The position numbers and the translations under genes were made by a program. A stretch of 61,574 bases of DNA, the filler included, from Hausera hauseri (Eukaryota): NCBI GenBank assembly GCA_046269625.1. It is 12 parts of 12 records of this genome, joined end to end, with 100 filler letters (N's around TTAATTAATTAA, not from the genome) between each part and the next. Parts side by side here need not be neighbours in the genome. Positions count along the whole stretch, not along the records: positions 50,713 to 55,767 come from JBJURY010349712.1; 11 more parts are not named here. One strand, written 5' to 3'. Below are positions 5,831-60,800 of the stretch, one piece after another. Each line of letters opens with the position of its first letter. Positions within the stretch are counted from its first letter, which is position 1. The notes under the pieces are model-generated. The model did no database searches. It was not told where the DNA came from and was given only the letters and a program-made list of their open reading frames with translations.

Positions 5831-5935
5831 AAGACTCAAAAGGGCCACAGCCAAAGTAATTTTAATTGGATTATAATTGGACATTCTTCTCTACTCACTA
5901 CGCTACCAATGAATTGTCTGATTGAGGGACCGAGC

Positions 5936-7050: not shown

Positions 7051-7199
7051 AAAAGAATTCTAGTTTTCTCCATCTTCTTCGCCTTCTCGCTCTTATCATT
7101 CCTCTTCTTTTTCCCAACAAACCTCAAAAAACTAACAACGTCGCCAGGTGCCACGTCACATTCTGGTATAGCCAATACCGCTGAATTGTCTGGCCGTCT

Positions 7200-10848: not shown

Positions 10849-10897
10849 AAGGAGGTGATGTGGTGCCGCAGTCGTGGACACAAAGCGTGTCCCCACC
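10849..10897 (+). promoter_or_regulatory. Polypurine tract and start of the 3' LTR (only about 40 nt recognisable)
   Basis: AAGGAGGTGA followed by TGTGGTGCC; same arrangement as GGAGGGTGA-TGTAGTGC at 18766-18782. Confidence 0.7.
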
Positions 10898-11389
10898 AAA
10901 ATGCTGATGGAATTATTCCTTCTCGTAATTTAGTATTATGTAGATCTACAATCCACGAATGCCAATGGCTGACAGAATTTTCCTGATATCTCCGCATATT
11001 GGCAGGTAAAATCGCAACATGCACCAATAAAAAGTAATGTTTGTCGAAACTCAGATGGAAATTTTTAACAAACGGCATATTGAGACCGAGATAATCCAAT
11101 TTTGATGAAACGGACAATCAAGTTCATTCAGCATATTTATAGCTTCCTCACCGATCTCATGCGTTGCATCATCATCATTAATTCGAATAATTCTATGTTC
11201 TACTGCATGTTGATTTCTAACACTTTTCTTGTCATTCATCTCACAATCCGAATTAATATACACAACGTTGGACACGTATAATCCACTGGNNNNNNNNNNN
11301 NNNNNNNNNNNNNNNNNNNNNNNNNNNNNNNNNTTAATTAATTAANNNNNNNNNNNNNNNNNNNNNNNNNNNNNNNNNNNNNNNNNNNN

Positions 11390-12840: not shown

Positions 12841-13195
12841 ACTGTTCCGTAATAATTTGATACTGCTTTCGGCTGCTTAATGGTAGAAATTTTGTGCCCA
12901 TTTATGGTTATTTCCGGCGATGAAACGATATTTTCTGTTAGTTTCCTTAATTATCCTCTAGGGTATAAATTATTAGTCGCCGTCTGATTAACACGATCGT
13001 CGATGAGTGGTTCTTGCGATAGTATACCGGAGATTGAACATAGTTTCGGATTTTCCCAGATGGTTTGACTATTATCCCCTGATCGTTTTTTGTAAGTCCT
13101 TGGTTGATGACATTCATTTTCCGTAGTACTCAATAATGTTTTGTTTTTTCGTAAAGGTCTTTATAGTCAATAGGTCTTTGATAAACCTCTGATTT

Positions 13196-15242: not shown

Positions 15243-15905
15243 TGATTCGTTTCCTTTCCTCGAAGAGATGTTTCGTACTATGTCCTCTAAGTTATTGATC
15301 CTTTTCGCATTGTCCTCTTTTTCGAATGGTTTAGCCCATTTTATTTCTTTAGGTACCCTTCTCGTCGCTTTCCTAGCTAACCAGATTGTCTTGTCGAACT
15401 CATTCTCTCGGAGAGGATTAGTTTTTACAGCTAAGTATATCAAAACTTTCCTTAATTCTTCCATCGTATTATCCATCATGATTCTACCAATTACTGTTTC
15501 TTCAATGAGAGTACTTTTAGATAATTTGAATCGCGATGTTTTCATTGTCCGCGCTATATTATATATTAGTCTTTCTTTTTCAGACAATGTATCACCTTGT
15601 AGTCCGGTATAATTGACTATTCTTATTAAATCTTTCATTAGTTCAACTAATTCTTCGTTATCTGAGCTCGGCGTGGGTACTGACAATAGTCTTAGTTCTC
15701 TGATCAAATCCGCATTATAGTCCACTTCTTTTATTGTCCTCAGTCTTCCGACCGGTCGTTTCGGTTTCGTTGACTGTAAGGTTTCACTTATAGGTACTAG
15801 ATTTTTATCGTATTGTGTTTTGTCATCATCCGTTTGCAAATATTCAAAGTACATTGCGGCGTCCTGAATCCCCATAATTCTTCCAACGCAATGTTCTGTA
15901 TGCAC
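15243..15905 (-). CDS. Unknown charged, helical domain in frame upstream of the glycoprotein signal peptide (possible Gag/matrix-like part)
   Basis: First about 220 aa of ORF 14904-15905, continuous with the signal peptide; no Zn knuckle visible. Confidence 0.5.
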
Positions 15906-16067
15906 CTTCCTTATGGCTTCGTCTTTGGTTTACTCACTAGCGATTATTGCTATTATTTGATTCTCTTNNNNNNNNNNNNNNNNNNNNNNNNNNNNNNNNN
16001 NNNNNNNNNNNTTAATTAATTAANNNNNNNNNNNNNNNNNNNNNNNNNNNNNNNNNNNNNNNNNNNN

Positions 16068-18895
16068 GCATACCATCAGATACCGGTAGCACCAGATGAC
16101 ATAGAAAAAACTGCCGTAACTACTCCTTTTGGCCTCTACGAATACCTATTTATGCCATTCGGTTTACGGAATGCTGCACAAACTTTTCAGAGGCACATCG
16201 ATTCAATCCTTGCAGATTTCTCGTTTGCACGGCCTTATATCGAAGATATTCTAATCGTTTCGTCTTCAGCCAAACAGCATGAAAAACACCTTCGCGCAAT
16301 ATTCCAACGCCTTCACCACCATAACCTACAGATTAACTTCGACAAACGCAACTTTTTCAAGAAACGCATTAATTTCTTAGGTCACTTCATCACACCAGAC
16401 GGTCATTCTCTACAATCAGACCGAATCGAAGCCCTTAAAAACATACAATTACCACGTACAACCACCGAAATGAGTAGCTTCCTTGGCACATTACACTTCG
16501 TGCATAAATACGTCCCGTACTGCTCAGAATTAACGGCTCCGTTCGCACACCTAAGCGTCGGTAAAAAACATCAGCCAATTTAGTGGACACCTGAATTGGT
16601 TGATAAATTCGACAGGCTAAGTGAAGGCCTCAAAAGTGTTGATATTCTTGCCTTTCCCAAGCCTGATGCAGAGCTCATCCTCACCACAGATGTGTCAACC
16701 ACTGCTGTAGGCGCTGTACTTCACCAGATCTACAAGGTAGAAAACCAACCCTTGGAATTCTTTTATCGCAAACTAACAATACCTGAAACAAAATATTCCA
16801 CGTTTGATCGAGAACTATTGTCAATCGTGCTCGCTCTAAAGCATTTTTCACACCTACTTGTCGCTCGCCATTTCACTTTGCAAACTGATCATAAGCCTTT
16901 ACTTAACATCATGACCATGAAACACTCTTCCACACGCCAAGAACGCCAAATATCATATTTGTCGACATTTAATTTCGATATTAAACATATAAACGGAGTT
17001 AACAATTTAGTTGCTGATTTTTTATCTAGGTCGGTTAGTTCGATAAGTTTTTCTCCCATTCTTACGCAAGAACAACTTCAACAGAACCAGCCACCTCCAG
17101 ACATGCTTAAGTCTTTTAAATCTTGCACAATTGTTGACAGCGTGGCTTTGGACACATCCAAATTAGGTCATTCAGTAATCATTCTAGCACCTTCCTTGCA
17201 CAGACAAGCATTTCGTCATGTACATTCACTACACCATCCTGGTGCTAAAGCCACTTTTCGTCTCCTCCATCGACAAGTAATGTGGCCATCAATGCGTTCC
17301 GATGTGCAGGCATGAGTTAAGGAGTGTGTGGCATGCCAAAAATACAAAACAACTAAGCATTTAAAGTCACGACTGTTCCACTTTCCCTGCACATCGCGTT
17401 TTCAGTCCATGCATATCGACATCGTTGGCCCTCTTCCTCCTGACAACGGTCATCAAATCATCTTCACCCTGATGGACCGTTCCTCGCGATGGCCAGAAGC
17501 CATCTCTCTGCGGAGCACAAACACCGACACCATAGCTGACGTTTTCATTCGCACATGGATTAGCATGTTTGGATCACCTCGTTTCATCATCACGGACCAG
17601 GGTCCACAGTTTGAATCCAACTTGTTCAAATTCTTTGTTAACCGACTGAGGATCCACCACATTCATACTACGCCTTATCACCCCCAATCGAATGGCCTCC
17701 TAGAACGTTTCCACCGTGCATTGAAAACGTTACTACGCATTCTCGCAGAGTCCAACAGTAGTTGGACCAATTTTCTTCCGTTCGTTCTGCTTGGCTGGAG
17801 GAACACTCCGTCAACTTCTACAATATGCTCGCCTAGTGAAGCATTATTCGGAGCTCCTGTCCGATCATTATTTTAACTAACCGCCCTAGACGACACTACC
17901 ACAGATGAGACTATACGGGCGGCGCAAAATCACTTCGTCAAAGTCAGCAAAGACTCGTTTTGCAGGATACTTCACAAAGATAAAACATACCTACCTGAAG
18001 ATTTGTACACTGCTAAATTGGTATTGCTGAAGAATCAAGCCCCTTGCGGTTTCCAGCCACGGTATCTAAGGCCCTATAAACTTATACAGCTCCACTCGCA
18101 TAACGCTATCATATCCAAAGACGGTAAAGACTGCACAGTACATTACCAACCTAAAGCCAGCTTTCCTTATCGACGACACTTTACCACCTGACACGCCAGC
18201 TTCCTTTCTTACTCCTCCACTCCCTGCTATCCCTACATCTATTACTATACCACTTCCACTTCCCTTTTCTGCGCCTAGTCTTGCTTCTTCATTGTCTACA
18301 CCTTTAACTTTTATTACTACCAATCTTCCTATCTCTACCACTCCTTCTGTATCATCTTCCTAGCCCACTCTTTCACTTAACACAATTCCAATATCTACTT
18401 CAACCTTTTCTACTCTTCCTTTATCCACCACTAAACTTTCCATTACTCCATCGTCTCCTAACACTTCTCAATATCTTTAACCCTCCGTCTTTAACACCCA
18501 CTCTTCCCCCTACACCTTCTTCACCTTCTTCATCTTCGCACAACAACACATACACCAAAACTTACCAATTTTTTCCCCAATCCCAATCTCTGCAAACAAA
18601 CACACTGCACAAACACACAACACGCAAAGTCACATTCAGCCAATATGGTAGGGAAAAATCAGTCGAAGGTATTCAACACCTTATACACACTAAGCTCAGC
18701 TAACACACACTTCGTTTTGCGCTTTTTTCTCTTTCTTTTACCCTTTACAGTTCCAGCTTTGCCACGGAGGGTGATGTAGTGCAGGCGCCGACTGTTGCCC
18801 TTTGGCCCATTTCGTTGGGCACGGCCAGGTTTTTCGCTGCCTGCGCGTCAGACGCATAGGCGGGCCCCGATTTTCTGCCTCGAGGCCGCACCATA
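16068..18895 (+). mobile_element. CsRn1-like Ty3/Gypsy 3' half: RT end, RNase H, integrase, PPT, 3' LTR
   Basis: MPFGLRNAAQTFQR; TTDVS..YSTFDRELL..TDHKPL; HHPG..CQ; HIDIVGP..TDQGPQFES..YHPQSNGLLERFHR. Confidence 0.95.
18775..18895 (+). repeat. Putative short (about 120 bp) GC-rich 3' LTR
   Basis: Follows PPT GGAGGGTGA; imperfect inverted termini TGTAGTGC...GCACCATA; abrupt return to AT-rich DNA afterwards. Confidence 0.6.
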
Positions 18896-19003
18896 CGATT
18901 GCGTCGTTAGACAGTCTTTACAAAACTATTGTTTTATAATTGCATGATAATCAATATTTGCTTAAAGATATTGAACTGAAAAGTATCGATACTAGTTCAA
19001 CAA

Positions 19004-20200
19004 ATGCGGATGTTTTACTGCGAACTAAGCGATATCGAATTATGCCATTGGATATTCGTTTCTCATCGCAAAACGATAGTATCCGAAGATGATATGGAAA
19101 AGGGATTCATCAATAAACGTTCCTTCAATCATATATCGACAAGACCATTTCAAGACCTTGGTATTTTAATGATGTTCAATCAGAAGGGCCATTCGTTGTG
19201 TGATCGATACCGCTACCATGCTTTCATTATCTATTGTCGATCAGATCGGATATGGGTAAAAGGATTGGGAAAACGTTTAGAATCACCGCCGTTGGAGTAC
19301 AAATGCTGCATTAAAACTCGAGATTATATTGCAGCACATTCGGAAATTCAGAAGATTAAGGATTTCATTAAAAATCTGTGGCCAATTTTGGAGAATCTTT
19401 TACTGAATGTGATTCATCCGAATTATCAAATAAACTCAAAGGTGACCGCAATTCGACTGGAAGATGTTTCCAGCGACAATCATCTGCCAGATATTCTTCG
19501 TAGTGTGAACATTTTGTATGCATTTGATGATCAATTCTGGCAGCTGCTTCCGATGACCTTACGGAAGGATTCGACTGCTACATATGGGTTAAGTAGTACC
19601 CCTTGGTATTTGATTTCACAAACAACTCCTCTTGTCAATGGTCAGATTCTTTATCCAATCAAAGTACAAATCGAAGGATTTTTTCGTCCTCATTATCTTA
19701 TCCAGATCGAGCCATCTCCTCACTCTGGAACATTACAGGAAAATGCCATCAGTAAACTTATAACAGATTATCTCTGAACACATTCTTGATTCTCTGCATT
19801 TGGTCGATTCCAATTTGACTTTGACTGATTCCGGTTTACCACATATTTATAGTTTTGTTTGCTGTATTTTGGCTTATTGGATTCCTTTCAGTCATTCTAA
19901 AATTGCCAGATTCTAAATCATATACATTGCCAATCCGTCCGTGCGCATTCATTCTACCAGCTATATTTCTCGTATGGCTGTTTATTTATCGTTGGAAATC
20001 TATGTAATGGAATAAGGAACAGAAAAGCCGACGGATATTTAATTTAACAATGTCACTAAATGCTAAACTATTTCAAATGAACGAAAGCATTATCGTTACA
20101 TCACAACGAAACAGAAAATGCAACATGATAGTTATATATGTCGTGTATTACTCCATATTTCAGAGCTCGGAAACAGTACATTACATATTGAATACTGTAA
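19004..20200 (+). pseudogene. TIR-domain protein followed by two predicted TM helices; intronless and disrupted
   Basis: YHAFIIYCRSDRIWVKGLGKRLESPPLEYKCCIKTRDY matches TIR box1/box2 (YDAFISY..D..WV...LE....C...RDF). Another frame at 19831-20004 gives IFIVLFAVFWLIGFLSVIL and AFILPAIFLVWLFIY. Confidence 0.75.
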
Positions 20201-26852: not shown

Positions 26853-29800
26853 CTAATGTCCATACGCCCAACTCTTATTTCGCCCCACCCACTTTCGCTT
26901 ATTATCGTTACATGACAAAGCGACTTTCGCACTATTTATTGTGTACAGCTGGTGTTCAGTTGATCAGATGATCGTTTGAGACAACAGCCACTGATTGTCC
27001 TCCTTGCGCTGCTGCTGCTGCTTCATATATACGGCGATAATTACCGTGACCGATTGCCGTCTGTGTTAGCTGGACTCATTTTGCACGCATTTTCGGTCCA
27101 CAGCTCGTCAGAAGACTATAGCACTTTGGGCGTAGCAATATCCATTCCCGATACCGGACACGACCTTCACTTTCATCCTTGAAGCAGTCTATTTTATTTG
27201 TGATCTCGCTGCTGTACAAGGGATGATCCGGTGTATAGTTGGACGTGTCCAGTAATCCATCTGACTGCAGTAGCTGTTCGTGATTGACGTTTTTCAGCCA
27301 CAGGAAAAAACTCTGTTCCCGGCAATTATGTAAATATTGCAGCCGTCAAACATTTGCCGGTAACGTACCAATTCGCGTTACTTCAGCTCATACATCGGCA
27401 ACTTGCTTAGGTCCAATACCACTTGTCCGATGTAACTTGGCCGGTCTAGAACGACTTCTCTGTTTAACAGCACCGCAACCAATCTATCGGCAATGTGCAT
27501 TGACCGCCGAAATTGTGCCTTGCAGGTATACGTAACCAGACGCTTTTCCTAATTATATAGGTGTACATTGAGCCGCTTTTTCGGATTCTTCACTGTTTTT
27601 CCGTACAGGGAATTGTTTTTCAGCTTGTAGTAGTCCTTTTCAAACTTTTTACAAGCTTCGGCTCGTTTCTCCGAATTTCCATCTATGTACGCCTTGAATA
27701 TGGGAGCCTCAGCAAATAGAATTGTAAGATGCATCTGTGTGACGCGAACTGTAGCAGACGCAAATGGACCACGTAATTCAGCTTCGGTTCATGCGTCATG
27801 AGCAGTTGATTCACTTTTGAACCTGGCGGACATTGGTTAAATGGTGCGACCGGTAAATCGTTTAAAACCATGCAGCTCATCTGGCATCACGAGATCGACT
27901 TCCATCAGGTATCCGACTGATTCTGCCGTGTCTGCTCGTAGGTTGACCATTATGTTGTCCAAATCTTGTATGTAGACTACACATTCAAATGAACCGTACG
28001 GCAAGGGTTGCGAAAGCGCCCAGCCGTACAGGTTATTAATATCAATATACAGCAGTGATGTGGTAACGGCAGCATTGACCTGATGCTTGTTGACAAATGT
28101 CATGCCACCGTGAATACCAACATAAAACAGCCGGTACATTTCCGGATCTTGCAGCAGCTCAATGTTTCGATCCAGTGACATTAGAGCTGACGCCCAACTC
28201 ATTCCCGGTATGGAATAAAAGTTGAGTGGCGCCAACCTATCTTCTGCCAGCGCTTTGGTACGAAATGCTTTGCACACGTCGGCTAATAAGTACACGTTCA
28301 GTTTGAGATACTGGATCATGTAATCCAACATGTTTCTACAGCCCAGTTCTGTCCAAGATTCTTGTGCTCTCCGATATTCATCTTCTGTGATACCTGTCCA
28401 TCGTGGCGGTAATTCCTCTGCTGTCCGGAGTCGATCATATGGTGTTGCAAAGTCATATAGAAATATGCCTTTGCTGCGTGCAATATGTGTAGGAAACTGC
28501 GTCAGTGCTATCGGCACATCTGGCAAGGCATTTACCAGCTTTGTTAATGATTCATAGAGAAATTGTAATGAATGAAGGAAGCGTACCTGGTATCGGTTTA
28601 CTCGTGCCGACAGCGATATATATTTCTCCATTGTCATTGGGATTATGGACAGTTCTCAGTGCGGAAAGGCGTTAATGGCCCATTTGAGAATATGGTTACA
28701 GTCATACCCTTGGAAATTATGAAAGCTCATCGGCAGGAATGGTCGCACTCGCCTTGCTAAATTGCATGAATTGCATGCTGCTTCCAAGTATCGACCGGTG
28801 AAATGGTCGTGATCCGGTACGAGCCGTTTCTGTGCATAAAACGGTATTATTTTGTGCTACAGATAGCATTCATCGGTGACAGCGAAAAGCAACGGTTGAT
28901 ATTCGTCTTCCTAAATGAATCGTTTATTGCAAATGTTGTGATACCACGGCGCGATTTCCGTTTCCACTATGGTTTGCAACTGCTGCAGGAAATTACGTAC
29001 ACAGATCCAACCATGGAAAACGTAATACTGCGGTTGTTCTGCGGCTTTTATCGGTACTAGCAACATAACGACGGCAATTGGAACGTGATTTGATCGCGTA
29101 CATTGAGCCATGGTAGAATTGCTTCAATATCGGCATACACCACATATGCAGGACTGTCCGTTTTAGACCAATCACTGAATCTGAGCGTCCCTTTGACGGG
29201 CATGACGTACATTGTTGTCCCTGATGCGTTTTGTCTGTATAGTGTGACACGTTTCTCATACGTTGTTTCTGATCTGAATCCATGCAGACATGCAGAACAC
29301 CATTTGCATCGTATTCGCTTTTTGATGAACTGGTCATACTCCATGTTCAACAGTCTATCCAGATTTGTCACTGCCACGTAATGAAATTATTCGGCCTGCT
29401 CTAACAACAATATATTTACCGAGCGTCCATTTGGGTTCCGACTGCGACAAATTATGTCCACATGGGGGTTCTTATAAATTTCTTTGTCTTCCGGTATTTC
29501 AACTATTGTGTTGTACCGGAAAACGTTGATTGACAGCGTCGGATTACGCCGTTCAAAAGCCGGAATGGTTTTGAGTTTTATCGGCATCCAGCATTCATCA
29601 AATTGCATTTCGGAAAATTACTGCCGATACTGATTTGGACGATTTGCATGATATTCGTTCACTTCGCTCTACTTCAATACAGCCAGAATACTGTACAAAA
29701 AACAGTATTCGTCACCAGTATTTTGTACATTCACTACCGCAAGAGACTGCTTTTGAGATGCAGGTGTCGATGTGAATGACCGTCCAGACAAATATACCAC

Positions 29801-30184
29801 GTCACTCGACTTTTTAATGATAAAGTCGAGTGTGACAATTCGTATAATTTGCCATCCACTACCCTTTTCGGTATAGTTGGCGATTTTCTCATCCAACTTT
29901 TCGCCTACATCGGCATTAAGATCTTCGGAATACGGTACGGCTCGATATGACAGATACCATTGTTTCCTGTGACCTTCAGAGTTTTCAAATTTTGCAAATG
30001 CATAATATTGCACTTTGCAGTTGTTGGGTTTGAATTTCGCCACGTATAATTTCAAACGGCAACGTACACGGGACGGAACATGCCTCAGCTGTAGTGTTGT
30101 TATCCCCGACATGTTTACTTTCATGCCCACATACGATTTGTTTAGATCGTACTTGACAGTAATGGAAGATTCCTTCTGTTGCAT
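26853..30184 (-). pseudogene. Protein-primed family B DNA polymerase (Polinton type), frameshifted
   Basis: GSGW, VVNVQN..CFLYSIL, IPAFERRN..SINVF, YADIEAIL, endonuclease VII-like DHDHFTG..ACNSCN, FHNF.GYD, EKYIS, KGIF.YD, YLLADV, GGMTFV, YIDINNLYGWALSQPLP, KLKNNSLYGKT, DTSNY, DNKR...AYGH*. YxDTDS not intact. Confidence 0.93.
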
Positions 30185-31086
30185 CTGCTCCTGCTGCTTC
30201 TGCTGCTGTTCGGTACTGTTTCAGATTAAGTCGTTAAGACTTTTTGAGGTCTGACGTTTCCTGCTTGTTGAGGGGATACTGGTTTTTCTTCTCGTCATCA
30301 CTATTTCCTTTTTGTACCCCTGAAACTGGTTCAAGTGGTCCTTGTGCTGGTTATAAAATTGGTCATAGTTCGTTCCGTCAACTATAGAACAACCGAGACA
30401 AACGTAGGTCCGTTTACCGTGCACCGTTATGGCGCCATAGTACTGCACCATTACACTATGGCAACAATTAAGATCATGCACTCAACTACTACAGTATCGC
30501 GGGTATATGGGATAATGCACAATCATCATCTCTGCAGGCGTAAACGGGTCGCGATGATGCTTGTGCATCGCATAAATGTCAGGTTATGGACAAGGGGCCG
30601 AAATACTACCGCACATTGGGCATAAATATGAGTTCGTTAGAACGGTGTAATATTTAGCCATCTGCTGATGGCACTGCTCATACTCCGCATGTATGCGCGA
30701 GACGCAATACATGGGATAACTGGTACACTTCAGAATGGGAAACAAAATAAAATAAATGTTTTCTATTAAGTTATAAATACTATAAATTGAAATATGACAA
30801 CTTATTTGTCGGTCTTGAGAAAAAAAGAAGTCTCCTTAATCCCTTATAAACAACTATTCTAATCGCTACAACAACAACAACAACAACTAAAAATCACATG
30901 GAACAGTACATTGAAAGCGAGATTAAGAAATTGACCAATGACATTTTGACTGGACATGTGTTTGATGTTCAGTTTTTGTGTGAGCTNNNNNNNNNNNNNN
31001 NNNNNNNNNNNNNNNNNNNNNNNNNNNNNNTTAATTAATTAANNNNNNNNNNNNNNNNNNNNNNNNNNNNNNNNNNNNNNNNNNNN

Positions 31087-38050: not shown

Positions 38051-38923
38051 TTNNNNNNNNNNTCTTGTGAAACATTACCATACGTAGATTTGCTCATTAT
38101 TCCAGCAACCACCGAAAAATGTTCTCGCTCACCACCCGAGCTCATTGATTGTATTATAACCTTCTTGCTTTTCCTGCAAGTATTCTTTCCTCTCCACCAT
38201 ACACAAAGTCTACATTTAGCTCTACCATGGAAGGTCTTTGTAGGCTCATCTCTGATAGGTTTTAATTACGTTTTGAGAAAATTCTTTCACAGACGAAATA
38301 CTGACGGTTTAAAAGATTCTTAATAGCACAGAAATATTAAACTCTTTTATAGATTCAGTTTGTACACCCACCCGAGCGAATCGTCTTCACCTTCATACGC
38401 CTTCAGACGTCGACTTGAATTTTTTGAAAGAAAGCGGCTGTCATCTTGACGTCATCAGCTCTTCCATACAGTTTATCTTGGACCGTCACCGGGAACGGCC
38501 ACAGAAGCTTTCTCTGTTCCACGTACAATGGTTGTTCAGCTGTCATTTTCTCAGTACTGATTGGGGAGCGAATCTAAAAATGATCAGTGAACAATTTGGT
38601 TATTTAAGTGATCACATTTGCAGCATTCAACTGTGTTTGCTGAACATATGTTTGTTTACCGAATTTGTTCATTGATAAAAATCATCCATTTTTTTTTTCA
38701 AATACCTCTGGATTTGCAGATAAGCAAATTGTTGGTGCATCGTATCCAAACCGTTGTCCATTTTGGAATTTCTGCCTTTAGCTGATGAAATGCCTTAAAT
38801 TATTATCTGTTAGTTCAAGCCAACATAACAACTCACCAGGCGTTTTCTGACGCTTTCCAAAATTACATTCTGTTTAAAAAAACAAAACGTTCCAGGCGTT
38901 TCCAGAACTTTCTCATTTTCTTT

Positions 38924-39210
38924 GACAGCAGTATGGACATGTTTTATTATACATGACATAAGTATGGACATGTTTTATTATACATGACATAAGTATGGAC
39001 ATGTTTTATTATACATGACATAAGTATGGACACGTTTTATTATACATGACAGCAGTATGGACATGTTTTATTATACATGGCAGCAGTATGGACATGTTAT
39101 ACTATGCATGACAGCAGTATGGACATGTTTTATTATACATGACAGCAGTATGGACATGTTATACTATACATGACAGCAGTATGGGCATGTTTTATTATAC
39201 ATGACAGCAG
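38924..39210. repeat. 31-bp minisatellite, 9 copies plus 8 nt
   Basis: Unit GACA(GC/TA)AGTATGGACATGTTTTATTATACAT head-to-tail, no spacers. Confidence 0.95.
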
Positions 39211-40329
39211 GTAGTCTCGTTTTTCATGACAAAAAAGTGCCAACACTTTTTCATACATTCGCCAAGCACAAGTCCCTTTTGCTGCAGGCAAATCTGAGCA
39301 TCACCTTGGCATAGTAGGGCCTACTGGTTCCATAAACGAATGCATGGCTTACATGAGGACGGTACGAAATATTGTAAAATGTTGCGTGGCAACCGCTATT
39401 TACCCCCATCAAGTCATGTGGGGGAATGTACAATGCTCTAACATCGGGCTTTGTGAGAATATGCGCTGCTTATTTTTTTATTTGTTATTCATTTGTAGCC
39501 CCATGTAGCGCCCCAGTCTTATCTGCTGATAATGTGCATGCTTACCTTACATGTTTTCAAGAAGAGCTGACGCTCTAAAGACCTTATTTGATGCGTGCTG
39601 GCAATCGATATAATAATTATACACAGAGTATATTTATAATTTATTTCGAATTATATCAATACACGCACTCTCTGTTGAGAGAGTAAAGGCGGCCTGGCGT
39701 TATGATGACACCACAACCCACTCATGTACCAGTGTCAAAATGTGGATACTAGCTCCATATTGCCCTATATTTTAATGAAACTGCGACCACACCTTGATGA
39801 CAGCGAGGGGTGTTTTGACAATATTGGTTACCGCCAGACAATATTGACCTGGCTTTCATTTCACCTCAAACTTCGACACGTGCCTGGCAATATTGACCGG
39901 AAGTTCATGACAAAGTTAGTTTAAAAGTAGCCGGGAGGTGGAAAACTTAGTTGTCGTCTTTGAAACGCCAGAATATAAACTAGAGGTAAGTAAACAGTCT
40001 CTTAGTGTTTTAGTCTTCTTTATTGTATTTTTATATTAGGCACCTTGAAGGATAACTTCAATTATTGGTACAATATCTCAGTATTATAACGTGTCATGCA
40101 GAATAGAAGAACGTTGCCCTGACTGAGCCTCACTCTCACCACAGCCCTCGGAAAAGACTCGTCTGTCTTCCTCCGTTTTATTTCATTGATAACCCGTGTC
40201 CATCGTCGTTTTGGTCGGCGCTTGCTTCGNNNNNNNNNNNNNNNNNNNNNNNNNNNNNNNNNNNNNNNNNNNNTTAATTAATTAANNNNNNNNNNNNNNN
40301 NNNNNNNNNNNNNNNNNNNNNNNNNNNNN

Positions 40330-41745: not shown

Positions 41746-43180
41746 TGTGTGAAAATAAAATTTATCAAAGATGAATCGGCAAAAAACTGCAGCCCAAACA
41801 GTGATTGAAATAATTTATTTAAGATTTATTGAATATTATAATCAGTCTCAGAGTCAAATGAACAAACATCTGACGCGAAACAGGACACAATTCACGACGA
41901 TAGTTCCCGTAAGTTAGCAATTTTGGTTAATTTAACATTCTCGGAACATTTTGTATCTAGCATCCAGTCCATTGTCGATCTGTCCGATTTACAATCGAGA
42001 CGAAAGTTGTTTTCTGAAAAACATCATGAATGTTTTGTTGCAACGCATCGATTCCAAAGACAAAAAGTCCTTTTTCAGTGTTCCAGTCACCGAGGAACAA
42101 GCACCAAACTATTCGATGATCATCGACAATCCGATGGATTTACAGACCATCGGTCGAAAAATTAGTTCCAGCCAATATCCGAGTATTTCGTCGATGTTGA
42201 ACGATATTATTCTCATGTGCAAAAATGCACTCATTTACAACACGTCGGATACGATTTATTTTAAAGTTGCCGCTCAGGTGAGTTGGTTTTGTCAATTGAT
42301 AAAATTTCGTTTTTTTTTTCTATTCTCAGTTGTTGAATTTTTCAAAGAAGATGTTTTCATTCGAAAATCTTTCAAAAACCGTAATTAGTATGTCACTAAC
42401 TAGAACGTTTACCGACGATGAGCTGGGCGATATAAACTCATCTTTAGCAAGTATCAAGTATCTCCAGAAAGAAATATCCCGAGTTAAAATGTGTCGATCA
42501 TTACCAGTAAGACGGTGTTTGAGGAATTGATCGAATTTCGTTCCATTGCAGAGATCGATTCAACAGAATTACTCCAATCTCAGGAAACGACATACACCAG
42601 CATCGAAATTACCCCCAGGAAAACATGCCTGTCTGCGTCCAGTGGAGACGATAGTTCTTAGTAAATATGTTGCGTTAGCCGTACGACTTGAAATAACTGT
42701 CGTGCGTTATTCAGGTGCAACAGAGCGGTCTGATTCAGAACTGGAAGAGAACGGCTCGATTGTCCTGCAGTCTGATGTGCAGGACGAGGAAGATATTGAT
42801 GAAGATGAATCAACAGACATGGATGATGTCGTTCGGTCATGCAGAGAAGCGGCCAAGAAAGCCCGCCAGGCATTGGTACGTGCCGGATGTCCGACGATAT
42901 ACCGATTGGAACAGAACAGTGACAGCGTGGTGGCCGTTGATGTAACGTCTGGTAGGCAGTTTGCGATAGATCCCGTTGTACGGTCCATGGTAATGCGTCT
43001 GTCATCGGCAAATATCGACAAAATGATTGGTGATAGTATGGGTTTTATTTGTTTGCCAGATGATATCCACATAATTCTATGAATAGATCAGCGGACTACG
43101 ACCATGGTCAGTCAGTTGTGTTATACACCCAGTGAATATGTTTCACTGACAACAAGTAAACCATTAGAGGCATTTAGGTA
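41746..43180 (+). CDS. BRD7/9: Bromodomain protein BRD7/BRD9-like, multi-exon with very short introns; outer boundaries approximate
   Basis: KDKKSFFSVPVTEEQAPNYSMIIDNPMDL...LMCKNALIYNTSDTIYFKVAAQ|LLNFSKKMFS; GT-AG introns at 41909-41960 and 42278-42329 (52 nt each), the second restoring the frame of the last helix. Confidence 0.85.
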
Positions 43181-50712: not shown

Positions 50713-52770
50713 TATTTGCATTATTCTTCTTTTTGGAATCTTTCTATCCCATTCAATTGGTAAGCATGGCCTTTTATAATCGGGTTGACATATAAACACT
50801 CTTTCTTCTAAGAATAATCTGTCGATTTTGGTTAACTCCTTCTGTTCGGGTGAATTATCTGTTAGGGATAACATGACTATTTTTGGTTTTGATGGTATCT
50901 TTATTTTGAAAGTCTGATCTTCATAGAGGGGTGAATTTTTACCTTCTGACATATGAATCTGTACCGAGTAAATAGTTCCCTGTGTAACTTTACAACAATT
51001 TTCCCCATATGAAGACGTAGATGTGCATAACATTTTTTTTTCTCTGTACAAGGTTAATGTTCCCCAATTTTTGTTCATTGTTTTGTTACTATTTGTCCCG
51101 ATTTGTGGATTGAGGGATCTCAGAAATAGGCAATTTTTTGTATGATTGTATTGAATATACAAATCTCCTGGAGTAACTCCTTGCATATCCCATGGTTCTA
51201 TTTTTAAAATTTTCTTCAAATACCTCATAAAATCCGAAAATGTATTCAGCGATAATTGGGTAGATATACTTATTGCTTTCGTTGAGCTTGCAGTTGACTG
51301 CGTAAATGAATCTGGTATGCAGCAGACCAATATACTCATTAGTAATAGCATTCTAGGGGGTCTTGAATCGTGTTTAATCCGTGATAATTGAGTTTTTACA
51401 GGTCTTTTGGTTTGTCGCTGGCTTTTAACGTACAATAATATTACCAATGTTAGTATAAAAATGAGAATCACAATAGGTGCAATAATTATTAGTAGCAAAT
51501 ATCTATCGTCTTGTTTTGTTGTATTACTAAATATCTGGTTTTTCACTACTGTCTTATTTTCTTCCAGTGCTACTTGTCGTTCCATATGGGTATCGAATCG
51601 TTTACCGGGGGTGGTTATGTGGCATAATGCTATTGTCTTTTGTCGGTATATTATTTGTACAATATAGAGACATTGAGGTTTGAGATTGTCACAACCGATA
51701 GATGTAACTTTAAATGATGCGCATTTAACCGTATCATCATCAAATAATATCATATATTCACTATCGGGGAAGTTAAACATGGCTTTTCCATCATTCACTT
51801 GATAAGGTGTGTTCAGAGGAATAAATCGAATCATTTGAACATGTTTAGGGAGTCGTAGACCGTCATAGGATGCATGTAATGGTGAATCGAGTGTATTAAA
51901 GTACGCTGTGCTGATCCAAAACATGTTTGGACATGGAGATGGCAATTGTAAGGTTAATAGTACCTGCCTATCATTACCTGGTACACAAATTCCAGAGGGT
52001 TCCACGCTGGAATATTCTATACTATAATCTTCATTATTTGTTAGCTTCGCTGTGCATGTTATAGTGTAGGTGACGTTTTCTATTCTAGGTAGAATTCTCA
52101 TAATTCCTTCGAGGTTAATTATATCGGCGTTTATTGGTCGATCGAATTCGAGCGTTAGACGACATTTTTTACTATCTTCAATGGGATTAGCCGTTTTGAC
52201 CTTTACCCTGGTTAGATCAGTACTCATCATTTCTATGGGTATTTTAACAAGAATGGTTCGTCGCATTGTAATATTGTAACCAAACCCATTTGATCCCATG
52301 GTGATTTGTGATAATTGAAAGGTTAAGGAGTAAGTATGTCCATGAATAACTGAGCAACATTTGTTGTCCTTTAATTCCGAATGAGCAACGCAAACAGGTC
52401 TATTTGCTTTGAACAGTGTTATTACTTCTCTTTCTTGTCCAGTTAATCTATGTACATAGGTGATCATCAAGCATTTTTTCTTTGAATTATAATGGATTGA
52501 AAAAACCTTGAACATGAATTGTCGATTGTCGTTCAAGTCTAAACTCGTATTTTCTGGTAGTTTCGAATAGTCTCGATACGCGACATGCAAATTCCGTCCC
52601 TGGTCAAGAGTCGAGATCGAAGTTTGATTCAATTGGGGTGTTGAAGTTAGCTGTGCCAAAATATTAGTCATGCACAATGTCATTATACATGAGTATAAAG
52701 TCATTTTTCCAAATGGCGATCGTATACCGTGGCATTGCCGATTTATCGAATCATCTTCAACGAGATACAA
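50713..52770 (-). CDS. Intronless polyprotein of tandem type I membrane-protein units (signal peptide, Cys/beta-rich ectodomain, TM, signal peptide, ectodomain); runs off the contig
   Basis: About 686 open codons. SP1 from Met 52704; TM YLLLIIIAPIVILIFILTLVILLYV (about 51500-51427); SP2 MLLLMSILVCCIPDSFTQ from 51351; repeated I(H/Q)YN...C...TL...C...CC.V..G..YS. Confidence 0.8.
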
Positions 52771-52900
52771 TTGATCATGCCAGGGTTCTTGTGAGTTTTG
52801 TGGAAGATATGAAGAATATAGTCAATAGTATCAATGTAACAATTGTTAACAAAATTGCTGTAGTCATAAGTTTTATGTGCAGGTCGTTCAAGGTAGTCCA

Positions 52901-53631
52901 ATGAATAGCTTCTTTCAAACGTTAAATGATAAGGTGGCCAATCAACAAGTACGATATTAGTAAAATATAAAACATGGGATTAAGTACAAAGTAAGGCAGA
53001 TGTCGATAGGCTAAACGAAATAATTGGATCGTTGATGAGGGGCCAACGAGAAATGCAAGCGACTATTCAAACTCAAAATGCTGAAATAGAAAATTTAAAG
53101 AATTCTAATGAAGCGTTAGTGAGAAATCAAAAACATTCACCAACAAGGATAAAGGTAAAGTTTGCATCATGGCACTGAAAGTAAGTTATTTGTATTTAGG
53201 GTGCCAGTGCATCAGAAGTGAGCATTGATCCTCGTGACGTAATCATATTATAAAGAGGTAACAGTTCTTAGAATTCATGTAGTTTCTCAAAACTGAAATT
53301 CAAAAAATCAAAAAGGAAATTGACGATGGCGAAAAGAGGAGAAATCGATCGATTGAAACGTTGAATGATTCGATTGAAGTTGATATTACGTTATAATTTT
53401 CTTGAGAATTCTGAGATAATTTCAGTCAAACGAGGAACGATTAAATGAATTTTATGCTTGTATAATGGCCTGTCATTTCATGAAAGTAAGGATAATATTG
53501 GATGGTAAAAATAAGGAAAATTGCAGAATGAATATGAAGGGAGATTGGACAATTTATCGACAATTGTCAACAGTGGCAAAAAAGATGTAAATGAATGTAA
53601 AAAGAAAATTGAGGAGTTCAAGAATGATTTG
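52901..53631 (+). CDS. Fragment of a host coiled-coil gene with putative 25-50 nt introns
   Basis: E/K/Q-rich heptad segments separated by short GT..AG stretches such as 53258-53282; exon structure tentative. Confidence 0.45.
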
Positions 53632-54341
53632 GTTAGTTACTGTTTCGAAATGTTTCGGTCTTTTCACAAACTATTTTCGGATAACAAATTGAAGCAAAAT
53701 GAAAAAAATTTAGTCTTTAAAATGCAATATGGGTATGTCTGATTTATGAACAGAACAATCTCACTTACCTACAGTTTCAGTATGAACTATAATCTAAAAA
53801 TAGTAAAAAAGGCATCAAGCAATGAAATGTAACTATTAATACCATTTACCAAGAGTTTATTTCATAATCCAACAAACAAAAAATGTAGATACATGCAGTC
53901 ACGCGTATCGATACATACAGCCAGGGGTCGAAAAATCATAATTTTACACCATTGGTTATTTTTCATGGGAAAACCTTTGATTTTTACAAAGTTGCAATTT
54001 TCCGGAAGTTGGAATGATGAAGCTTCCTGAAAGATGGCTGAAGGTTCATACACGTTCGAATGGTTGACCTAAAGTATTGCTGAGTACTTATTTACAGTTT
54101 TGATTAATAATTGGTCTCTTCTATACACGGTATAAATATTTTGCATTTCCTTTTTCGACATACTTTGGATTTTTATTTAAAATTTCTGCGTTTCTTTTGG
54201 TCAGCCCTGTATGTTTATGAAAAAATGTTTAAGTTTTTTATTCGGCTTTAAAAACGCTTCGAATGTTTGTTGAAATCTCCTATATTTAAGACTGGTCAAT
54301 AGAGAAAAACATTATTAGCTAAAAGGTGTCGGATAATAATA

Positions 54342-55767
54342 CAGTCAAACCTCGTAAATGTCGCACCTCTGTAAGAGGTCCACCTCTACAAAAGCTCCTT
54401 TTTTAAAATCACGGATATATTATCGATAAAATAAACTCTCTAATATTGCACCTCGTAACAATCGCCACTACGCAAAATGTACCTGTGTAAATCTCACAAA
54501 ACACGTAAATAACCCTTCTAATGTCGCCATCCTGTCTTACTACGTGAGGACAGAACCAAAGAATTTGTATGCACGCAGTAACTCTCATCATGTATACCAT
54601 GGACCATTCACTGTGACTACTGTAGCATGGATGCACACACACGTTCACACCTATATTATACAGTCACACCCTTATAACACGTTCACACTACACACACAGG
54701 TAGGTTGCCCTTACATTTGTCTCATTCAGTACGCTAGACCACGGCTGTTTTATTTCATACCGCTTACGCACACGACAAACGTTTGCACTTTCACTCATTA
54801 ACCTTATCTAACCTTGAGACATGTCTAATAGTAAACAAAATAAGGAGTTAGCTCTTGCGATTTAAGACTCACTACTTAAAGAAATATCGACCGGTGTAAG
54901 AAAGCGCCTTATTGCAGAAAAGTATGAACTCAGCAGGAAGCAGATCTAACATTATTCGTAAGAAGCACGATATTATGGAGGCAGAAAGCAACAACTCCAA
55001 CAACAATCGCAAACGTTTGCATGGCAGCAACGTAGTGTCAACAATAGATGATGTGATGTGGCGATGGTTTCAGTTGGCGCAACAAGCGAAAATTCCTATC
55101 TCTGGGCCAATTCTCCAAGAAAAAACATTCCATTACGCAGCTGAACTGCAACTAACTGACTTGAAAGCTTCAAACGGATGGTTGCAACGTTTCAAAGTCT
55201 GTAATAACATTTACTGTGTCACGATGAGTGGAGAAGCAGCTGCCGTGGATAATGATAGCACACAAGATTGGATTTTACGCATTCCAAGCCTGGTACAAGG
55301 ATATTCTCCTCGAGACATCTGTAACAGATAAAATTGGTCTTATGTATCGAGCCCTTCCTGTCAAGGCACTCAAAGTTCGAGGCGAAGGTTGCAAAGGCGG
55401 GATGCGCAGCAAAGAGAGAATAACAGTTGTGCTTTGCTGTAGCCAACTGGTGGAATTCGAAAAGTCACTAGTAATTGGGAAGTCGCATTCACCCAGTTGC
55501 TTCAATAGCGTTGTAATGGTATCTGTAACATGGAGATTGAACAAAAAGGCTTGGATGACATCTTTACTGTTCCGCGAATGGTTATCATCATTCAACGGTA
55601 AGATGCACCGCTCAGGCCGCTATGTTCTATTCATTCTTGACAACGTTCCTTCTCATTCTCGCGATTGCCGCTTCAGCAACGTCAAGCTTCTCTTTCTGCC
55701 CGCAAATATGACAAGTCTGCTGCAGCCGCTAGACTAGGGAATAATACAACCCTTCACAATGATTCGT
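54342..55767 (+). mobile_element. Tigger/pogo-family DNA transposon (left TIR and frameshifted CENP-B-HTH/DDE transposase), truncated
   Basis: TA + CAGTCAAACCTCG terminus; WFQ...IPISGPILQEK, ASNGWLQRFK, SKERITV, NKKAWMT, ILDNVPSH, FLPANMTSLLQPLD. Confidence 0.95.
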
Positions 55768-55867: not shown

Positions 55868-56716
55868 AAATTAAAGCCCCACCAAAAAACTTACCGATAG
55901 AGATGTAATCGAGATTCTTAAAAAATTAAAAAAGCATTTCATAGAGGATTTAAAGGAAATTCTTCATCGGGATATTTGTCAAAAAGTCATTGAAACAACC
56001 GCATATGGTTCTTTTAACAATTGGTGGGATTTTAAGGAAAATGAATATAAAAGTACGACCGTTGAAAAACAAGAAATCCCCTAAGTAGGAAGCAATTTAA
56101 AATCCACATACGTCCAGGATTCCCTATCCAAAGACGATTCGTCAAATTTATTTCCATCACATATCCCTAACTATATAAGCCTGCCGAAAATTAAAAGATT
56201 AGCGAAGCCGAGCTCACCGAAAGACGAACGCGGTCATTATTTCTATCAAACGTCGTCGGATTCAGATCGTCGTAATTACAAATCATATCGAGATTTCCAC
56301 AAAAAACATTACTACTACCACGGATACAACCGCCATTTCAACAAGAAACGTAACCATTTTCGTAATGAAGGGTTCCACCATGGTGGAAGATACAATCGGT
56401 TCGATGAACACCACGATTATCGAGATTATCACCGGAATAGATCTCGTTTTGAACGGTACGACAAATTCGTTTCAGAAATCGATAATTCCGATTTGGGTAG
56501 GAATGAACGTCCGAAAACCCCAGTAAAAGAGGAAATATTGCCGGAATTCAGTTCGAATAAATCGAAAGGTGCGCCGATAAATGACATAAAACCGAAATAT
56601 TTTGATGCTGTTGATGATGTGGACGTTACGAACAGAGTTACCGAAAAAGTTTCTGCAAAGCCCGAACACAAAGACGTAAAGAAATTGAAATCACTAACTT
56701 TAAAGGAAAAGCAAGT
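55868..56716 (+). pseudogene. SETD1: Central fragment of a SET1/SETD1 H3K4 methyltransferase with an in-frame stop at 56082
   Basis: Frame missed by the ORF track: EDLKEILHRDICQKVIETTAYGSFNNWWDFKE...SLPKIKR, matching the conserved SETD1 segment E.K.I..RD..KK.VE..AF..F..WW. Confidence 0.72.
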
Positions 56717-56719
56717 ACT

Positions 56720-57870
56720 AAATCCATACTCAGCACTATACATTTATGATGAAATTATAATAAAATTTAATTCCAAATTAACACATGTTAAACACTTTCA
56801 TTCAGGGTACATGGTCACCGTTGTGTTACATCAATTTTATATTTTCACAAATATTACCCTACAAAATGATAAGCACAGATAAATTTTTCCTTATAATCCA
56901 TATCAAAACGGTAGATCTATATACCTATCCTACTTACTCGACTTATATCACTGAGTATATTTGCCGTTTTTCTCATGTATACACGATAAACAGATTTTGC
57001 TTAAAGTCAAAAGGCACAAAAGTTCATGTCCACGGTACTACCTTCAATCTAACAATTTGTAAACTTTATACTGAAGGTACCTTGATCATCCATTTGCAAT
57101 ACAAAAACCCAATACTTAAAAACAATGATGTCCATCTAAAGTTTATTAGACAACCAAAGCATACGACGTATATTGCTGAAACGAATTCTACAATAACGAA
57201 TTCTGTGTCTGTGACAAATGATGATGTGGATGTTTTCTGTCGTTTATATCCTGTTGCAATCAAATTAATTATTACCGATGCAATTCCCGTATATATTTAT
57301 TATTAACCCACCTAATCTTCGGACTCGTTTTACACAAATACTGATCCACCTAACATCTCATACACCATCATGTGGCATTCAGTGTTACTGCACGGAAATA
57401 ATTACCAACGAGAACATAATAAAGTACTTCAATATATCCATGATAGATGTAAAAAATGTGACGATTTCTTTTGTACCTCACATCCATATATTTTATTTAT
57501 ATGATCCGCACACCTATCTGTCAAAAACAGTACGAAAATATTTTGACAAATGTCTAGCAATATACGTCAGAAAACATGTTCAAGACATTAATGAATTATT
57601 CCTTGATGATTTTATTCAACTGATTGACGTCAATTTAGAATTCAGACAAAAATTTCTATATAATACTCATCTACAAAAGGTAACATTTCTCCAGGCAGAA
57701 CTACTAACTCCTATGAGAATATCAATTAATCAGTTCCTCGCTTCTTTAATTGATTCAGATTATAATTCAAAAAATTTGGCAGTAAATAAAGCTGCAATCG
57801 TTTCCGATTTGGTAAACAGTATCGTGCATCACAATTCAGAAAATATTATCTTTCCATCATTCATAAATGA
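56720..57870 (+). pseudogene. Unknown intronless AT-rich coding region (frameshifted ORFs 56785-57306 and 57278 onward)
   Basis: Overlapping long same-strand frames; no recognised motif. Confidence 0.35.
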
Positions 57871-57872
57871 TT

Positions 57873-60800
57873 TGGTTGAGGGACCTGGCGTGCCCGCCCC
57901 GTTGCGCCATGTCCCCTCTCTTTTCTCATCTTTACTAATACTAAACATGTCCACACATTAAGGGTTACACACAAACAAACAGCTCATATTTTTTATACTG
58001 AATTGTACTCTTATTTCGGCTCCTCTGATTTTTATCTTATGCACAACGGTCTAACTTTGCAACCTTACGACTCTCTTTCATCCTTTGCACCCACGAAATA
58101 CTCCATCACTCTCACTGTCCATTTTCGCATCCGTGGTGGATCAGACCTTGACCCTTCTGCCGAAAGTTTAACATAAACCAGGTCTGGTCGTCGTTTTGTC
58201 GACTTCACACCATCAACATCTCCAAATCTTCCCTGTACAGACTTTTTCCTAGATAAAACTAACTTGAGCTGAACTTGGTTACAGTTTCACTTTCAATGGC
58301 TCAAAGCCAATCATATTACTGATTCCTTTCTGCGGGCTAACAGTTTGCTGCTATTGCTTCCATCTAACATCAGGCAGCAAATTAATAATCTGGCTGACAT
58401 ACTCTCTTCTTCAAGCTCGTACGATATGCTGTACGAATCGGTTCTACATATCACCGACCCTTCTATCGACAGCATAATACAGAAGTACTTTTACGAACAC
58501 GCCATTGGAAATCAAAACCATAGGATTTCCTTAAAACTGCCATCTCACAACTGAGTTCTTTAGGCGTGACTCCCACAAACAATGCTGATTTTCTTCCTTG
58601 GTACTTCCTCTTATCTCTGCCAACCTCCATCCAAGCGCTGCTTACTGTAGTAGATGACTCTACTGCATTCAAAAAACTCGCCTTATTGGCAGACAAAAGC
58701 TTTGATATTCTGCAGTCTAACAACTCGAAGCCTGTAGTCGCAGCAACTGCTCACACACTGCCAGACAACACTTTATTTGCGCAACAAGTAAACATGATGC
58801 AGAAACAATTTGATACCCTACAACAAGCAGTTTCTGCAATCACAGCTCAACTCAGCGACTTATCCGTGCCCCGAGGAAGCAAAAATCGAATTTCCCGCGA
58901 TCGCAGTTTTTCCAGGCACTCTTCTCGTTCTAAATCTAGAGATGTGCTTTTATCACAACAAATTCTGCAGAGATGCAAGGAAATGTGTTTTAGGCTGTCG
59001 ATTCTACAATGCACGATATGCCGTAGACAATCCAATCTGCATCTATCACGCAAAGTACCAGTCTAAGGCTAGGTCATGCGTGCCAGGAAGTAAATATTAT
59101 AAAAAGAATTCTAGTTCTCCATCTTCTTCGCCTCCGCGCACTCACTATTCATCCTCTTCCTACCAACAAGTCTCAAAAAACCAATAATGCCACCAGATGC
59201 CACGGCACATTCTGGTACAGGCAGTATCGTTCAAACTACTGGCCGTTTCAACACCGCCTCTGCAGTCTTTCCGTTGAAAGCTGATCTGTTATTTGGGAAC
59301 ACATCACACGTAGATTTCCTTATTAATTCAGGAGCTACTTTTTCACTTTTTCCTTTGTCTTTCGCTCTTACATCTAACACAATTCTGTCTCCTCCACTCT
59401 TTACTGCCTGTGGACAACCTTTGAACATTGTAGGTGCCACAAAGCTGTCTTTCTCATTCTACAACCTACCAGGGAAATTTCCCTGGAATTTTCACATAGC
59501 CAACATCCGATCGCCCATAATAGGCTCCGATTTCGTGGCTGCATACGATTTGTTAGTCAACTGCAAGCAAAAATGCCGCCTGCGCAGAGACATCACTGCC
59601 AATTCTAACAAATACTTACCAAACGACCAGTCGGAAACTTTGTCTTCCTCAGATTGTTCAAATGTCAGTGTGACATCCTGTTCATCGGTTTAGAACAACG
59701 CGCTTAACATTTCATAAATATTTTCAATCTCATCAGGTGGAAACAAATCAATTTTGAAACATTCGGTTGAACCAAATGTTGTTAATAAAGCATCTAGGCT
59801 TTCTACATTGATTACAGCAACGGACTCTTAAAATGATATGCCATCATCATTCTTATCGTTAGATTCTGACTTTAAATTCTACATTAAGACTTCTTGTTCC
59901 CGCACTCTTAAGAAGGACATCAATTTCAAACCGCATTCATCACATAGTCACCGAACACCAAAGACCTATTAGACAAAAGGTCAGACCACTGTCACCTCGC
60001 AGACGAAAAGCCGTTGAATCAGAGTTCAACGAACTCGAAAAAGCGGGCATTATTCGACGATCCAAATCACCATGGGCTTCGCCTTTGCATGTTGTGACGA
60101 AGAAAGATGGCACATACAGACCATGCGGTGATTATCGGCAGTTAAATAATCTAACAGTCATGGATGCTTATCCTTTACCGCTCATAAATGACATCCTGCA
60201 CAGCCTTACCAACACTAATACGTACTCCACAATTGACTTGCATAAAACATCATCAAATTCCTGTTGCACTTGATGATATTCCAAAAACTGCTATTATTAC
60301 TCCATTTGGCCTCTACGAATATATCTTTATGCAATTTGGTTTACGTAGTGCTTCTCAAACTTTCCAACGGCACATTGATACCGTACTCTAAGGCCTTGAC
60401 TTTGCTCATCCATATATTGATGACATATTGGTTGCCTCTACGTCTGTCAAACAGCATCAAGAACACCTTCGTACTATCTTTCACAGATTACATCACAGCA
60501 ATTTGCAAGTCAACTTCGCCAAGTGTCATTTCTTTCAAAAACGTGTAAATTTCCTAGGTCACGTCATTACTCCTCACGGCCACTCTCCACAACCTAATAG
60601 ACTACAACAATTGAGGAACATAACTGTACCAACGACTACCACGGACATGAGAAGTTTCTTAGGCACACTCCACTTCATCCACAAATACGTACCTCATTGT
60701 TCTAAGCTCACAGCATATTTTGCACATTTATCATCCGGGAAAAGAGGCAGTTGATCCACTAGAATCCTGATTTAATTTCTAAGTTTGGCCACTTACGCAA

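Follow-up and report, generated by a model that had tools for sequence, protein, structure and literature searches.

The window, by which we mean the whole 61,574-nucleotide stretch of DNA analysed here (spacers included), carries on its minus strand a 703-codon intronless frame that belongs to a high-copy repeat. Our preferred reading, to which we give a probability of about one half, is that this is a truncated copy of the repeat, that its two paralogous units, predicted to be FN3-like membrane proteins, are carried as accessory cargo by a giant, Burro-like Ty3/Gypsy retroelement with an env, and that the encoded polyprotein is split by host signal peptidase.

The window was made up of 12 contigs of 4.2–7.0 kb each, joined by N spacers of 100 nt that share a fixed core of 14 letters. 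Because the 12 contigs are unlinked, their order and proximity are uninformative and any arrangement across contigs is an artefact; windows stitched from contigs in this way give a false impression of linkage. The frame lay on the contig at 50713–55767 (∼5 kb), and most of the other contigs were decayed Gypsy fragments.

Copy Number and Edges of the Repeat

Depth was expressed as the summed contig depth in runs X1, X2, X3, and X4, a quantity that is not equal to copy number. In X1 it ranged from 1,857 to 16,952 in 12 bins over 50713–52740, and from 2.45 to 14.9 in seven bins over the flank (52910–54092). Median X1 depths were 8,148 for the repeat, 4.5 for the flank and 113 for the adjoining Tigger transposon, giving a repeat to flank ratio of ∼1,800 and a depth ∼70 times that of the transposon. 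Matching X1 contigs numbered 3,492, with 267 at an identity of at least 99%, 659 and 1,300 in the next two identity classes, and 1,266 below 90%. The multi-copy, intronless coding sequence supports the mobile-element nature proposed in the initial annotation, and this combination is not specific to Ty3/Gypsy or Burro-like elements. A single-copy spliced host gene, the case that would have overturned that proposal, was ruled out by the lack of introns and by a depth far above that of the flank. The adjoining transposon (54342–55767, plus strand) was a decayed element of the pogo/Tigger type (DDE_1, E = 6.6e-23) with an X1 depth of ∼40–140; the start of its terminal repeat is presumably that of Tigger.

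One X1 flank contig (52791–53077) crossed two predicted introns with no gaps; X1 thus contains unspliced host DNA and therefore includes genomic DNA. The depth profiles of X2, X3, and X4 followed that of X1 (r = 0.97, 0.87, and 0.73, respectively), and X2 amounted to 1/26 to 1/53 of X1 across the ORF and to 1/18 to 1/51 in three transposon-side bins that had substantial X1 depth and were covered by X2. Since these depths scale with X1, they are accounted for by traces of DNA from the same organism or a close one, and the three runs were rejected as proof that the repeat is present in other species. None of the data sets listed as containing the sequence was from RNA, which has no bearing on whether it is expressed.

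At position 52761, contigs of X2, X3, and X4 ceased to match the window and continued in related sequence unlike the window flank, while diverged X1 contigs left the match slightly before this edge. One X2 contig that continued beyond it showed 2 differences in 130 nt. Because other copies continue past 52761, the window copy represents a longer unit that has been cut. The junction itself may be an assembly chimera, a possibility that we hold to be real but secondary; the adjacency of the host gene would then be an artefact and the repeat unit would be unaffected. It would fit with the observation that no contig bridged 52761, that depth was 0 at 52769–52781 in all four runs, and that the X1 flank contig ended at 52791. 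However, such a coverage hole proves nothing by itself, as an insertion with a subsequent deletion, or a polymorphic insertion, would look alike.

Variation among the copies was consistent with a maintained frame in one region and with neutrality in another set of differences. Between 52636 and 52728, 17 of 30 variant rows fell at third codon positions (15 of 27 places, p = 0.014); within the predicted signal sequence SP1, third positions made up 9 of the 14 variable places, with no variant listed at the ATG. As judged from these sequence variants, the third-position excess indicates family-level selection on this frame, signal segment included. The 39 best-supported differences in the ORF looked neutral (13/39 at third positions, 17/39 synonymous, p = 0.12, with 892 further rows outside this count). 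Where depths were given, many of the 39 set the window copy apart from nearly all the others and may thus be changes private to it, as in an inserted element. There was also a second length class, with ∼48 nt less sequence upstream of the ATG as estimated by eye from loose-end offsets, and some X1 and X4 copies lacked three 2-letter pairs at 51267–51275 (6 nt, in the linker that follows the second signal segment SP2); the frame was kept in both cases.

The Flanking Host Gene and the Proposed Third Unit

Beyond the edge, an intron-containing gene does exist on the plus strand, as the initial annotation had stated. Its splice model gave 232 codons without a stop, a spliceable length reached by none of 300 shuffles, with one intron per 40–160 nt. 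Pfam searches with this low-copy fragment returned sub-threshold matches of coiled-coil type only, and the fragment is not part of the element. Elsewhere in the window, a bromodomain exon of a host gene was found at 41936–42385 (plus strand; PF00439, E = 2.5e-19), and a tandem array with a 31-nt period at 38861–39272.

A further transmembrane segment upstream of the frame had been taken as evidence of a third unit. This region was covered by a single contig at depth 6, and because it lies beyond 52761 and is antisense of an exon and intron of the spliced host gene, it is not a polyprotein unit. Stop-free 19-residue windows with a Kyte-Doolittle hydropathy (KD) of at least 2.5 occurred 17 times in the six frames of the window, and the antisense of AT-rich exons and introns mimics a transmembrane helix. 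Full-length copies of the repeat may carry more units, and the segment in question is not one of them.

Table 1. Features of the contig at 50713–55767 (coordinates are those of the window).
Feature	Position	Strand	Basis or remark
High-copy repeat unit	50713–52761	−	Cut by contig end at 50713; joined to low-copy DNA at 52761
ORF from first Met, aa 40–703 of P0001	50713–52704	−	No stop, no intron
SP1, predicted signal sequence, aa 40–57	52651–52704	−	Hydropathy; followed by S/T-rich linker
Ectodomain 1, D1, predicted FN3-like seven-strand beta-sandwich	52234–52530	−	AlphaFold2 on two-sequence alignment
Ectodomain 1, D2, likely beta-sandwich (approximate limits)	51871–52233	−	Start homologous to truncated end of ectodomain 2
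Ectodomain 1, D3, E-F motif at aa 380	51598–51870	−	FN3-like motif
TM1, predicted 24-residue transmembrane helix, aa 441–464	51430–51501	−	Hydropathy
Basic loop of 26 residues, predicted to be cytosolic, without Box1-like motif	51352–51429	−	Hydropathy and charge
SP2, predicted internal signal sequence, aa 491–508, starts with Met	51298–51351	−	Hydropathy; followed by S/T-rich linker
Ectodomain 2, first domain, D1 paralogue	50887–51180	−	Alignment
Ectodomain 2, start of second domain	50713–50886	−	Alignment; cut by contig end
Low-copy host gene fragment, likely coiled-coil	52764–53732	+	Six predicted phase-0 introns of 41–47 nt
Upstream segment initially read as transmembrane	52800–52867	−	Antisense of host exon and of 47-nt intron 52836–52882

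Open Reading Frame and Predicted Membrane Topology

The stop-free frame extended from 52821 to 50713 on the minus strand, where it ran off the contig end, and contained no intron over its length. Its first Met was residue 40, at 52704, and residues 1–20 of P0001 derive from the low-copy flank. Frames in 500 shuffles reached 172 codons at most, and the next-longest within-contig ORF in the window was 341 aa, so that the ∼2 kb intronless frame reported at the outset was borne out.

Topology was predicted from Kyte-Doolittle-type hydropathy and charge, with cleavage sites placed by eye. SP1 was of moderate hydrophobicity (best 8-mer KD 1.96), TM1 was strong (mean KD 3.1), and the loop that follows it had 5 K/R and no D/E among its first 15 residues. 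SP2 was short and strongly hydrophobic (best 11-mer KD 3.14); no 19-residue window there reached KD 1.6, its core being too short for a full helix, and by eye its end showed the pattern of Pro and small residues that is typical of signals that are cleaved. The linkers after SP2 and SP1 were rich in S/T (9 of 19 and 7 of 16 residues, respectively). Eight N-glycosylation sequons were counted in the ORF, five of them within ectodomain 1. A transmembrane helix, a short basic loop, an internal signal-like segment and the next ectodomain were thus all present in one frame by hydropathy and charge. The order from SP1 through ectodomain, transmembrane helix, basic tail and SP2 to a second ectodomain, as first annotated, was recovered by hydropathy, although the ORF is incomplete and ends at the contig break.

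Two other ways of making the products would fit any carrier. SP2 could remain uncleaved, leaving one multi-pass protein, or spliced or sub-genomic RNAs could yield the units separately, with translation of each starting at a Met of its own. Both SP1 and SP2 start with Met, and spliced messages are the typical route of expression for additional ORFs in LTR elements according to the part of PMC5408684 available to us. Against this, the frame is open throughout the loop, and SP2 is too short in its core for a second helix, has by eye the ending of a cleavable signal and, like SP1, is followed by an S/T-rich linker. We therefore regard both arrangements as rather unlikely in comparison with a polyprotein cleaved after SP2.

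Paralogy and Fold of the Ectodomains

Local alignment of ectodomain 1 with ectodomain 2 gave a score of 92, as compared to 34 ± 5 for shuffled sequences, and none of 1,000 shuffles reached it. The first domains of the two ectodomains were 32% identical and had four Cys in common, in agreement with the shared Cys pattern noted at the start of both. The two ectodomains are paralogous tandem units.

AlphaFold2, run on the two-sequence alignment, predicted D1 as a seven-strand beta-sandwich (pLDDT 81.2, pTM 0.72), while a single-sequence model of the whole of ectodomain 1 gave no confident fold (pLDDT 32.6). The match of D3 to the D1 profile was weak (E = 0.061), and a Pfam search with D3 was without match. 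The FN3-like E-F strand motif occurred three times (aa 158, 380, and 612), once more than had been listed in the initial annotation; three or more occurrences arose in shuffles at a rate of 0.0001 (10,000 shuffles), for a pattern that was picked post hoc.

Foldseek searches with D1 ranked cytokine-receptor FN3 domains (E = 0.0055–0.05, the most frequent) and glycosidase sandwich domains first. No match was obtained at E = 0.001 or better, and matches to viral models (BFVD) were weak (E = 0.0027 or higher). With VIA-align, D1 aligned to a C2 domain (Z 8.3, rmsd 3.1, 87 aligned residues), to CD45 (Z 7.5, rmsd 3.4, 84 aligned) and to the fibronectin FN3 domain of 6msv (Z 7.2, rmsd 2.5, 78 of 83 aligned), so that the structural scores tied among C2, CD45, fibronectin FN3 and glycosidase-type sandwiches. 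Pfam fn3 matched neither the whole protein nor five domain pieces, and Atlas matches to FN3 (0.76–0.82) were below the reliable range and serve as leads only. The structural check suggested at the outset thus yielded a confident sandwich for D1, but no FN3-specific match at E = 0.001. On the predicted model, FN3 is favored for D1 though tied with other sandwiches. The units are probably FN3-like, with three domains each, and are not an established member of the FN3 family.

Searches for Relatives

The ORF protein gave nothing above the cut-off in Pfam; a match to PTPS (E = 0.0004–0.005) was below the cut-off and was rejected. A search of 5.8 billion sequences with residues 41–703 confirmed none of 3,445 candidates, all within lengths of 364–1161, and a PDB sequence search with the protein returned none. 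Among viral and metagenome contigs queried with the protein and with alignment A1, none of 6, 17, 586, and 53 pattern matches was confirmed. A search of 1.84 billion representatives returned two matches, a cadherin-repeat protein and a DUF11-repeat protein (E = 5.7e-6 and 1.7e-5), both rejected as relatives because they were sums of weak repeat matches. In the literature, covered mostly at the level of abstracts, no retroelement with tandem FN3-type membrane proteins was met; the original description of Burro may bear on this question. In PMC13524379, as far as it was accessible, the words 'accessory' and 'fibronectin' were absent from the main text, and 'fibronectin' and 'FN3' from seven supplements.

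Candidate Carriers of the Repeat

The contigs at 11390–15967 (minus strand) and 1–4154 (plus strand) held related, decayed Gypsy elements of gag-env-pol order, with ∼59% amino acid identity and env matches to PF24664 (E = 1.2e-7 and 2.4e-14). An internal hydrophobic segment (KD 3.02) was present at the gag-env junction of these env-before-pol elements. The HSV/gB env supplement of PMC13524379, which runs to 1.1 million characters, contained a 5-residue motif of their env in just two rows, each of them a Schmidtea element; because of this one shared motif and the short introns, a flatworm host is weakly suggested.

Past the integrase, contig 1–4154 contained a signal-like hydrophobic segment (KD 2.32 at 3598) followed by a beta-rich stretch, implying that the env-before-pol class can carry 3′ membrane-targeted cargo. 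The region at 3560–4154 (plus strand) appeared FN3-like by eye only and was broken by stops and frameshifts; it is possibly a 3′ accessory protein. Local alignments of the ORF protein with this post-integrase region were at shuffle level (profile probability 0.09), and an HMM of the ORF protein had no match in the window outside the ORF below E = 0.09. A by-eye likeness between SP2 and the signal of contig 1–4154 ranked only third or fourth among 119,460 positions. The ORF contig breaks off within the ORF; neither RT, integrase, LTR nor env was linked to the ORF on it, and only short chance repeats were found. Searches for long relatives of the env-before-pol element that might end in such units confirmed 0 of 403 and 0 of 680 candidates, which is weak evidence. 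The initial annotation had suggested that the frame may be the 3′ accessory region of the env-before-pol retroelement. The two lie on separate contigs and the proteins share no detectable homology, but the post-integrase segment of contig 1–4154 gives this assignment circumstantial support.

Further ORFs lay near Gypsy coding regions. One at 18980–19774 (plus strand), on a contig that has a Gypsy integrase ∼1 kb upstream of it, was TIR-like; it had no Pfam match, and all 18 of its weak PDB sequence matches were TIR domains of TLR or MyD88 (best E = 0.027). It is possibly immune-domain cargo or else a neighboring host gene. The others, within 56085–57958 and 5573–6097 (both plus strand), preceded gag in two Gypsy copies related to each other; they measured 174–265 aa and were without Pfam match.

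The same polyprotein might instead belong to another carrier, such as a Polinton/adintovirus-like, Penelope-like, LINE or BEL/Pao element or an endogenous virus, and we judge this to be an outside but serious contender. The ORF contig is without a linked element, the sharp upstream edge would fit a non-LTR element that truncates at its 5′ end, and DNA viruses carry FN3 and cytokine-receptor-like proteins, in line with the weak BFVD matches. A protein-primed polymerase is also represented in the window: a DNA polymerase B fragment with an upstream ORF (27840–28655 and 29672–30220, minus strand; PF03175, E = 7e-11), likely a Polinton/adintovirus-like remnant. Nevertheless, several membrane proteins in one frame would fit RNA-replicated elements better than DNA viruses, the viral contigs searched held no relative, and the env-before-pol elements of this assembly already have an internal hydrophobic segment at their gag-env junction.

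Least probable is massive amplification, with no mobile carrier, of a host family of surface-receptor genes that lack introns and are possibly retrocopies; this reading would agree with the FN3/cytokine-receptor-like fold and layout, with a frame still open among decayed elements and with the third-position excess, but accords poorly with the absence of introns over 2 kb beside a host gene so densely split, with a depth so far above that of the Tigger transposon, with a unit that adjoins a cut host exon mid-frame, and with the want of relatives among 1.84 billion representatives bar the two weak repeat-protein matches.

Proposed Mechanism and Implications

If the repeat is indeed cargo of a Burro-like Gypsy element, SP1 would start translocation of ectodomain 1, with its approximately three Cys-bridged sandwich domains. 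TM1 would halt transfer, leaving the basic loop in the cytosol, and SP2 would re-open translocation for ectodomain 2. A cut after SP2 by host signal peptidase would free unit 2 and leave unit 1 anchored by TM1 and the spent SP2. Glycoprotein polyproteins of enveloped RNA viruses are processed in such a manner. For an RNA-copied element this would be a way to encode several membrane proteins with neither introns nor additional promoters. Since there is no signaling tail and no match to a fusogen, the products are most likely binding modules; they may act in decoy, adhesion or receptor-interference roles on the surface of the host cell or of a particle, and not as fusogens.

More tentatively, the end of giant flatworm env-bearing Gypsy elements might be formed by duplicated FN3 receptor-like membrane proteins of host origin, in an array processed by signal peptidase. 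Such a decoy or adhesion battery, present in thousands of copies, would be comparable to the cassettes of immune modulators in large DNA viruses. If true, a retroelement would meet its host at the cell surface by something other than env, and one could begin to ask how giant elements of the planarian type spread or escape defense. In the abstracts and partial texts surveyed, invertebrate retroelements carry accessory proteins that for the most part are intracellular or enzymatic, or they carry a single fusogen.

Comparison With Known Systems

Ectodomains of class I cytokine receptors (EpoR, IL-7R, the TSLP receptor complex) provided the most frequent Foldseek rows for D1, and likewise have four Cys in the first sandwich domain and a single transmembrane helix. 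In contrast to these receptors, the ORF, in which ectodomain 2 is incomplete, has neither WSxWS nor the cytoplasmic Box1, its loop is only 26 residues long, and its structural scores tie with C2 and glycosidase sandwiches.

Capture of surface proteins by retroelements is documented in crocodilians, where CrocERV31 captured nectin3 and CrocERV29 captured KIT-ligand, as described in the accessible part of PMC4299795. The present case resembles these in that a retroelement would carry a host-like surface protein that lacks introns, has three sandwich domains and evolves under purifying selection. According to the same portion of PMC4299795, the crocodilian captures are single, Ig-like ORFs with a recognizable host parent, whereas the units here are FN3-like, arranged in tandem in one frame and without a recognizable parent. 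Small transmembrane ORF3s are known from rotifer retroelements (PMC5408684, in the part available).

The structural region of the planarian secretory cell nidovirus is, in the sections of PMC6211748 at hand, a single-frame polyprotein with predicted signal-peptidase cuts and host-like extracellular modules, as here. It belongs to an RNA virus and not to a genomic repeat, and its modules are of fibronectin type II, a different fold (same sections of PMC6211748).

The env-before-pol element of the window fits the GAG-ENV-POL errantiviruses with an HSV/gB-type env, described from Platyhelminthes, Nematoda, and Bryozoa in the accessible text of PMC13524379; the ORF itself is not an env. The system most like our preferred reading is Burro/GYPSM1, a giant planarian Gypsy element with thousands of copies, env between gag and pol, and host-like accessory domains, as set out in the available part of PMC6431247; Burro elements are also mentioned in the part of PMC11410931 at hand. 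The cargo named in that part of PMC6431247 is intracellular (BIR, BCL2-like, MATH, ankyrin, Smc, and SUMO-like), with no FN3 or tandem membrane units described there. As in Burro/GYPSM1, a giant polyprotein with host-like domains would here be present in high copy number, and the env-before-pol order recurs on other contigs of the window (compare the same part of PMC6431247). A tandem FN3-like array in one frame was not met in our literature search, which was mostly of abstracts; both of its ingredients, retroelement-captured surface proteins and signal-peptidase-cut polyproteins, are known.
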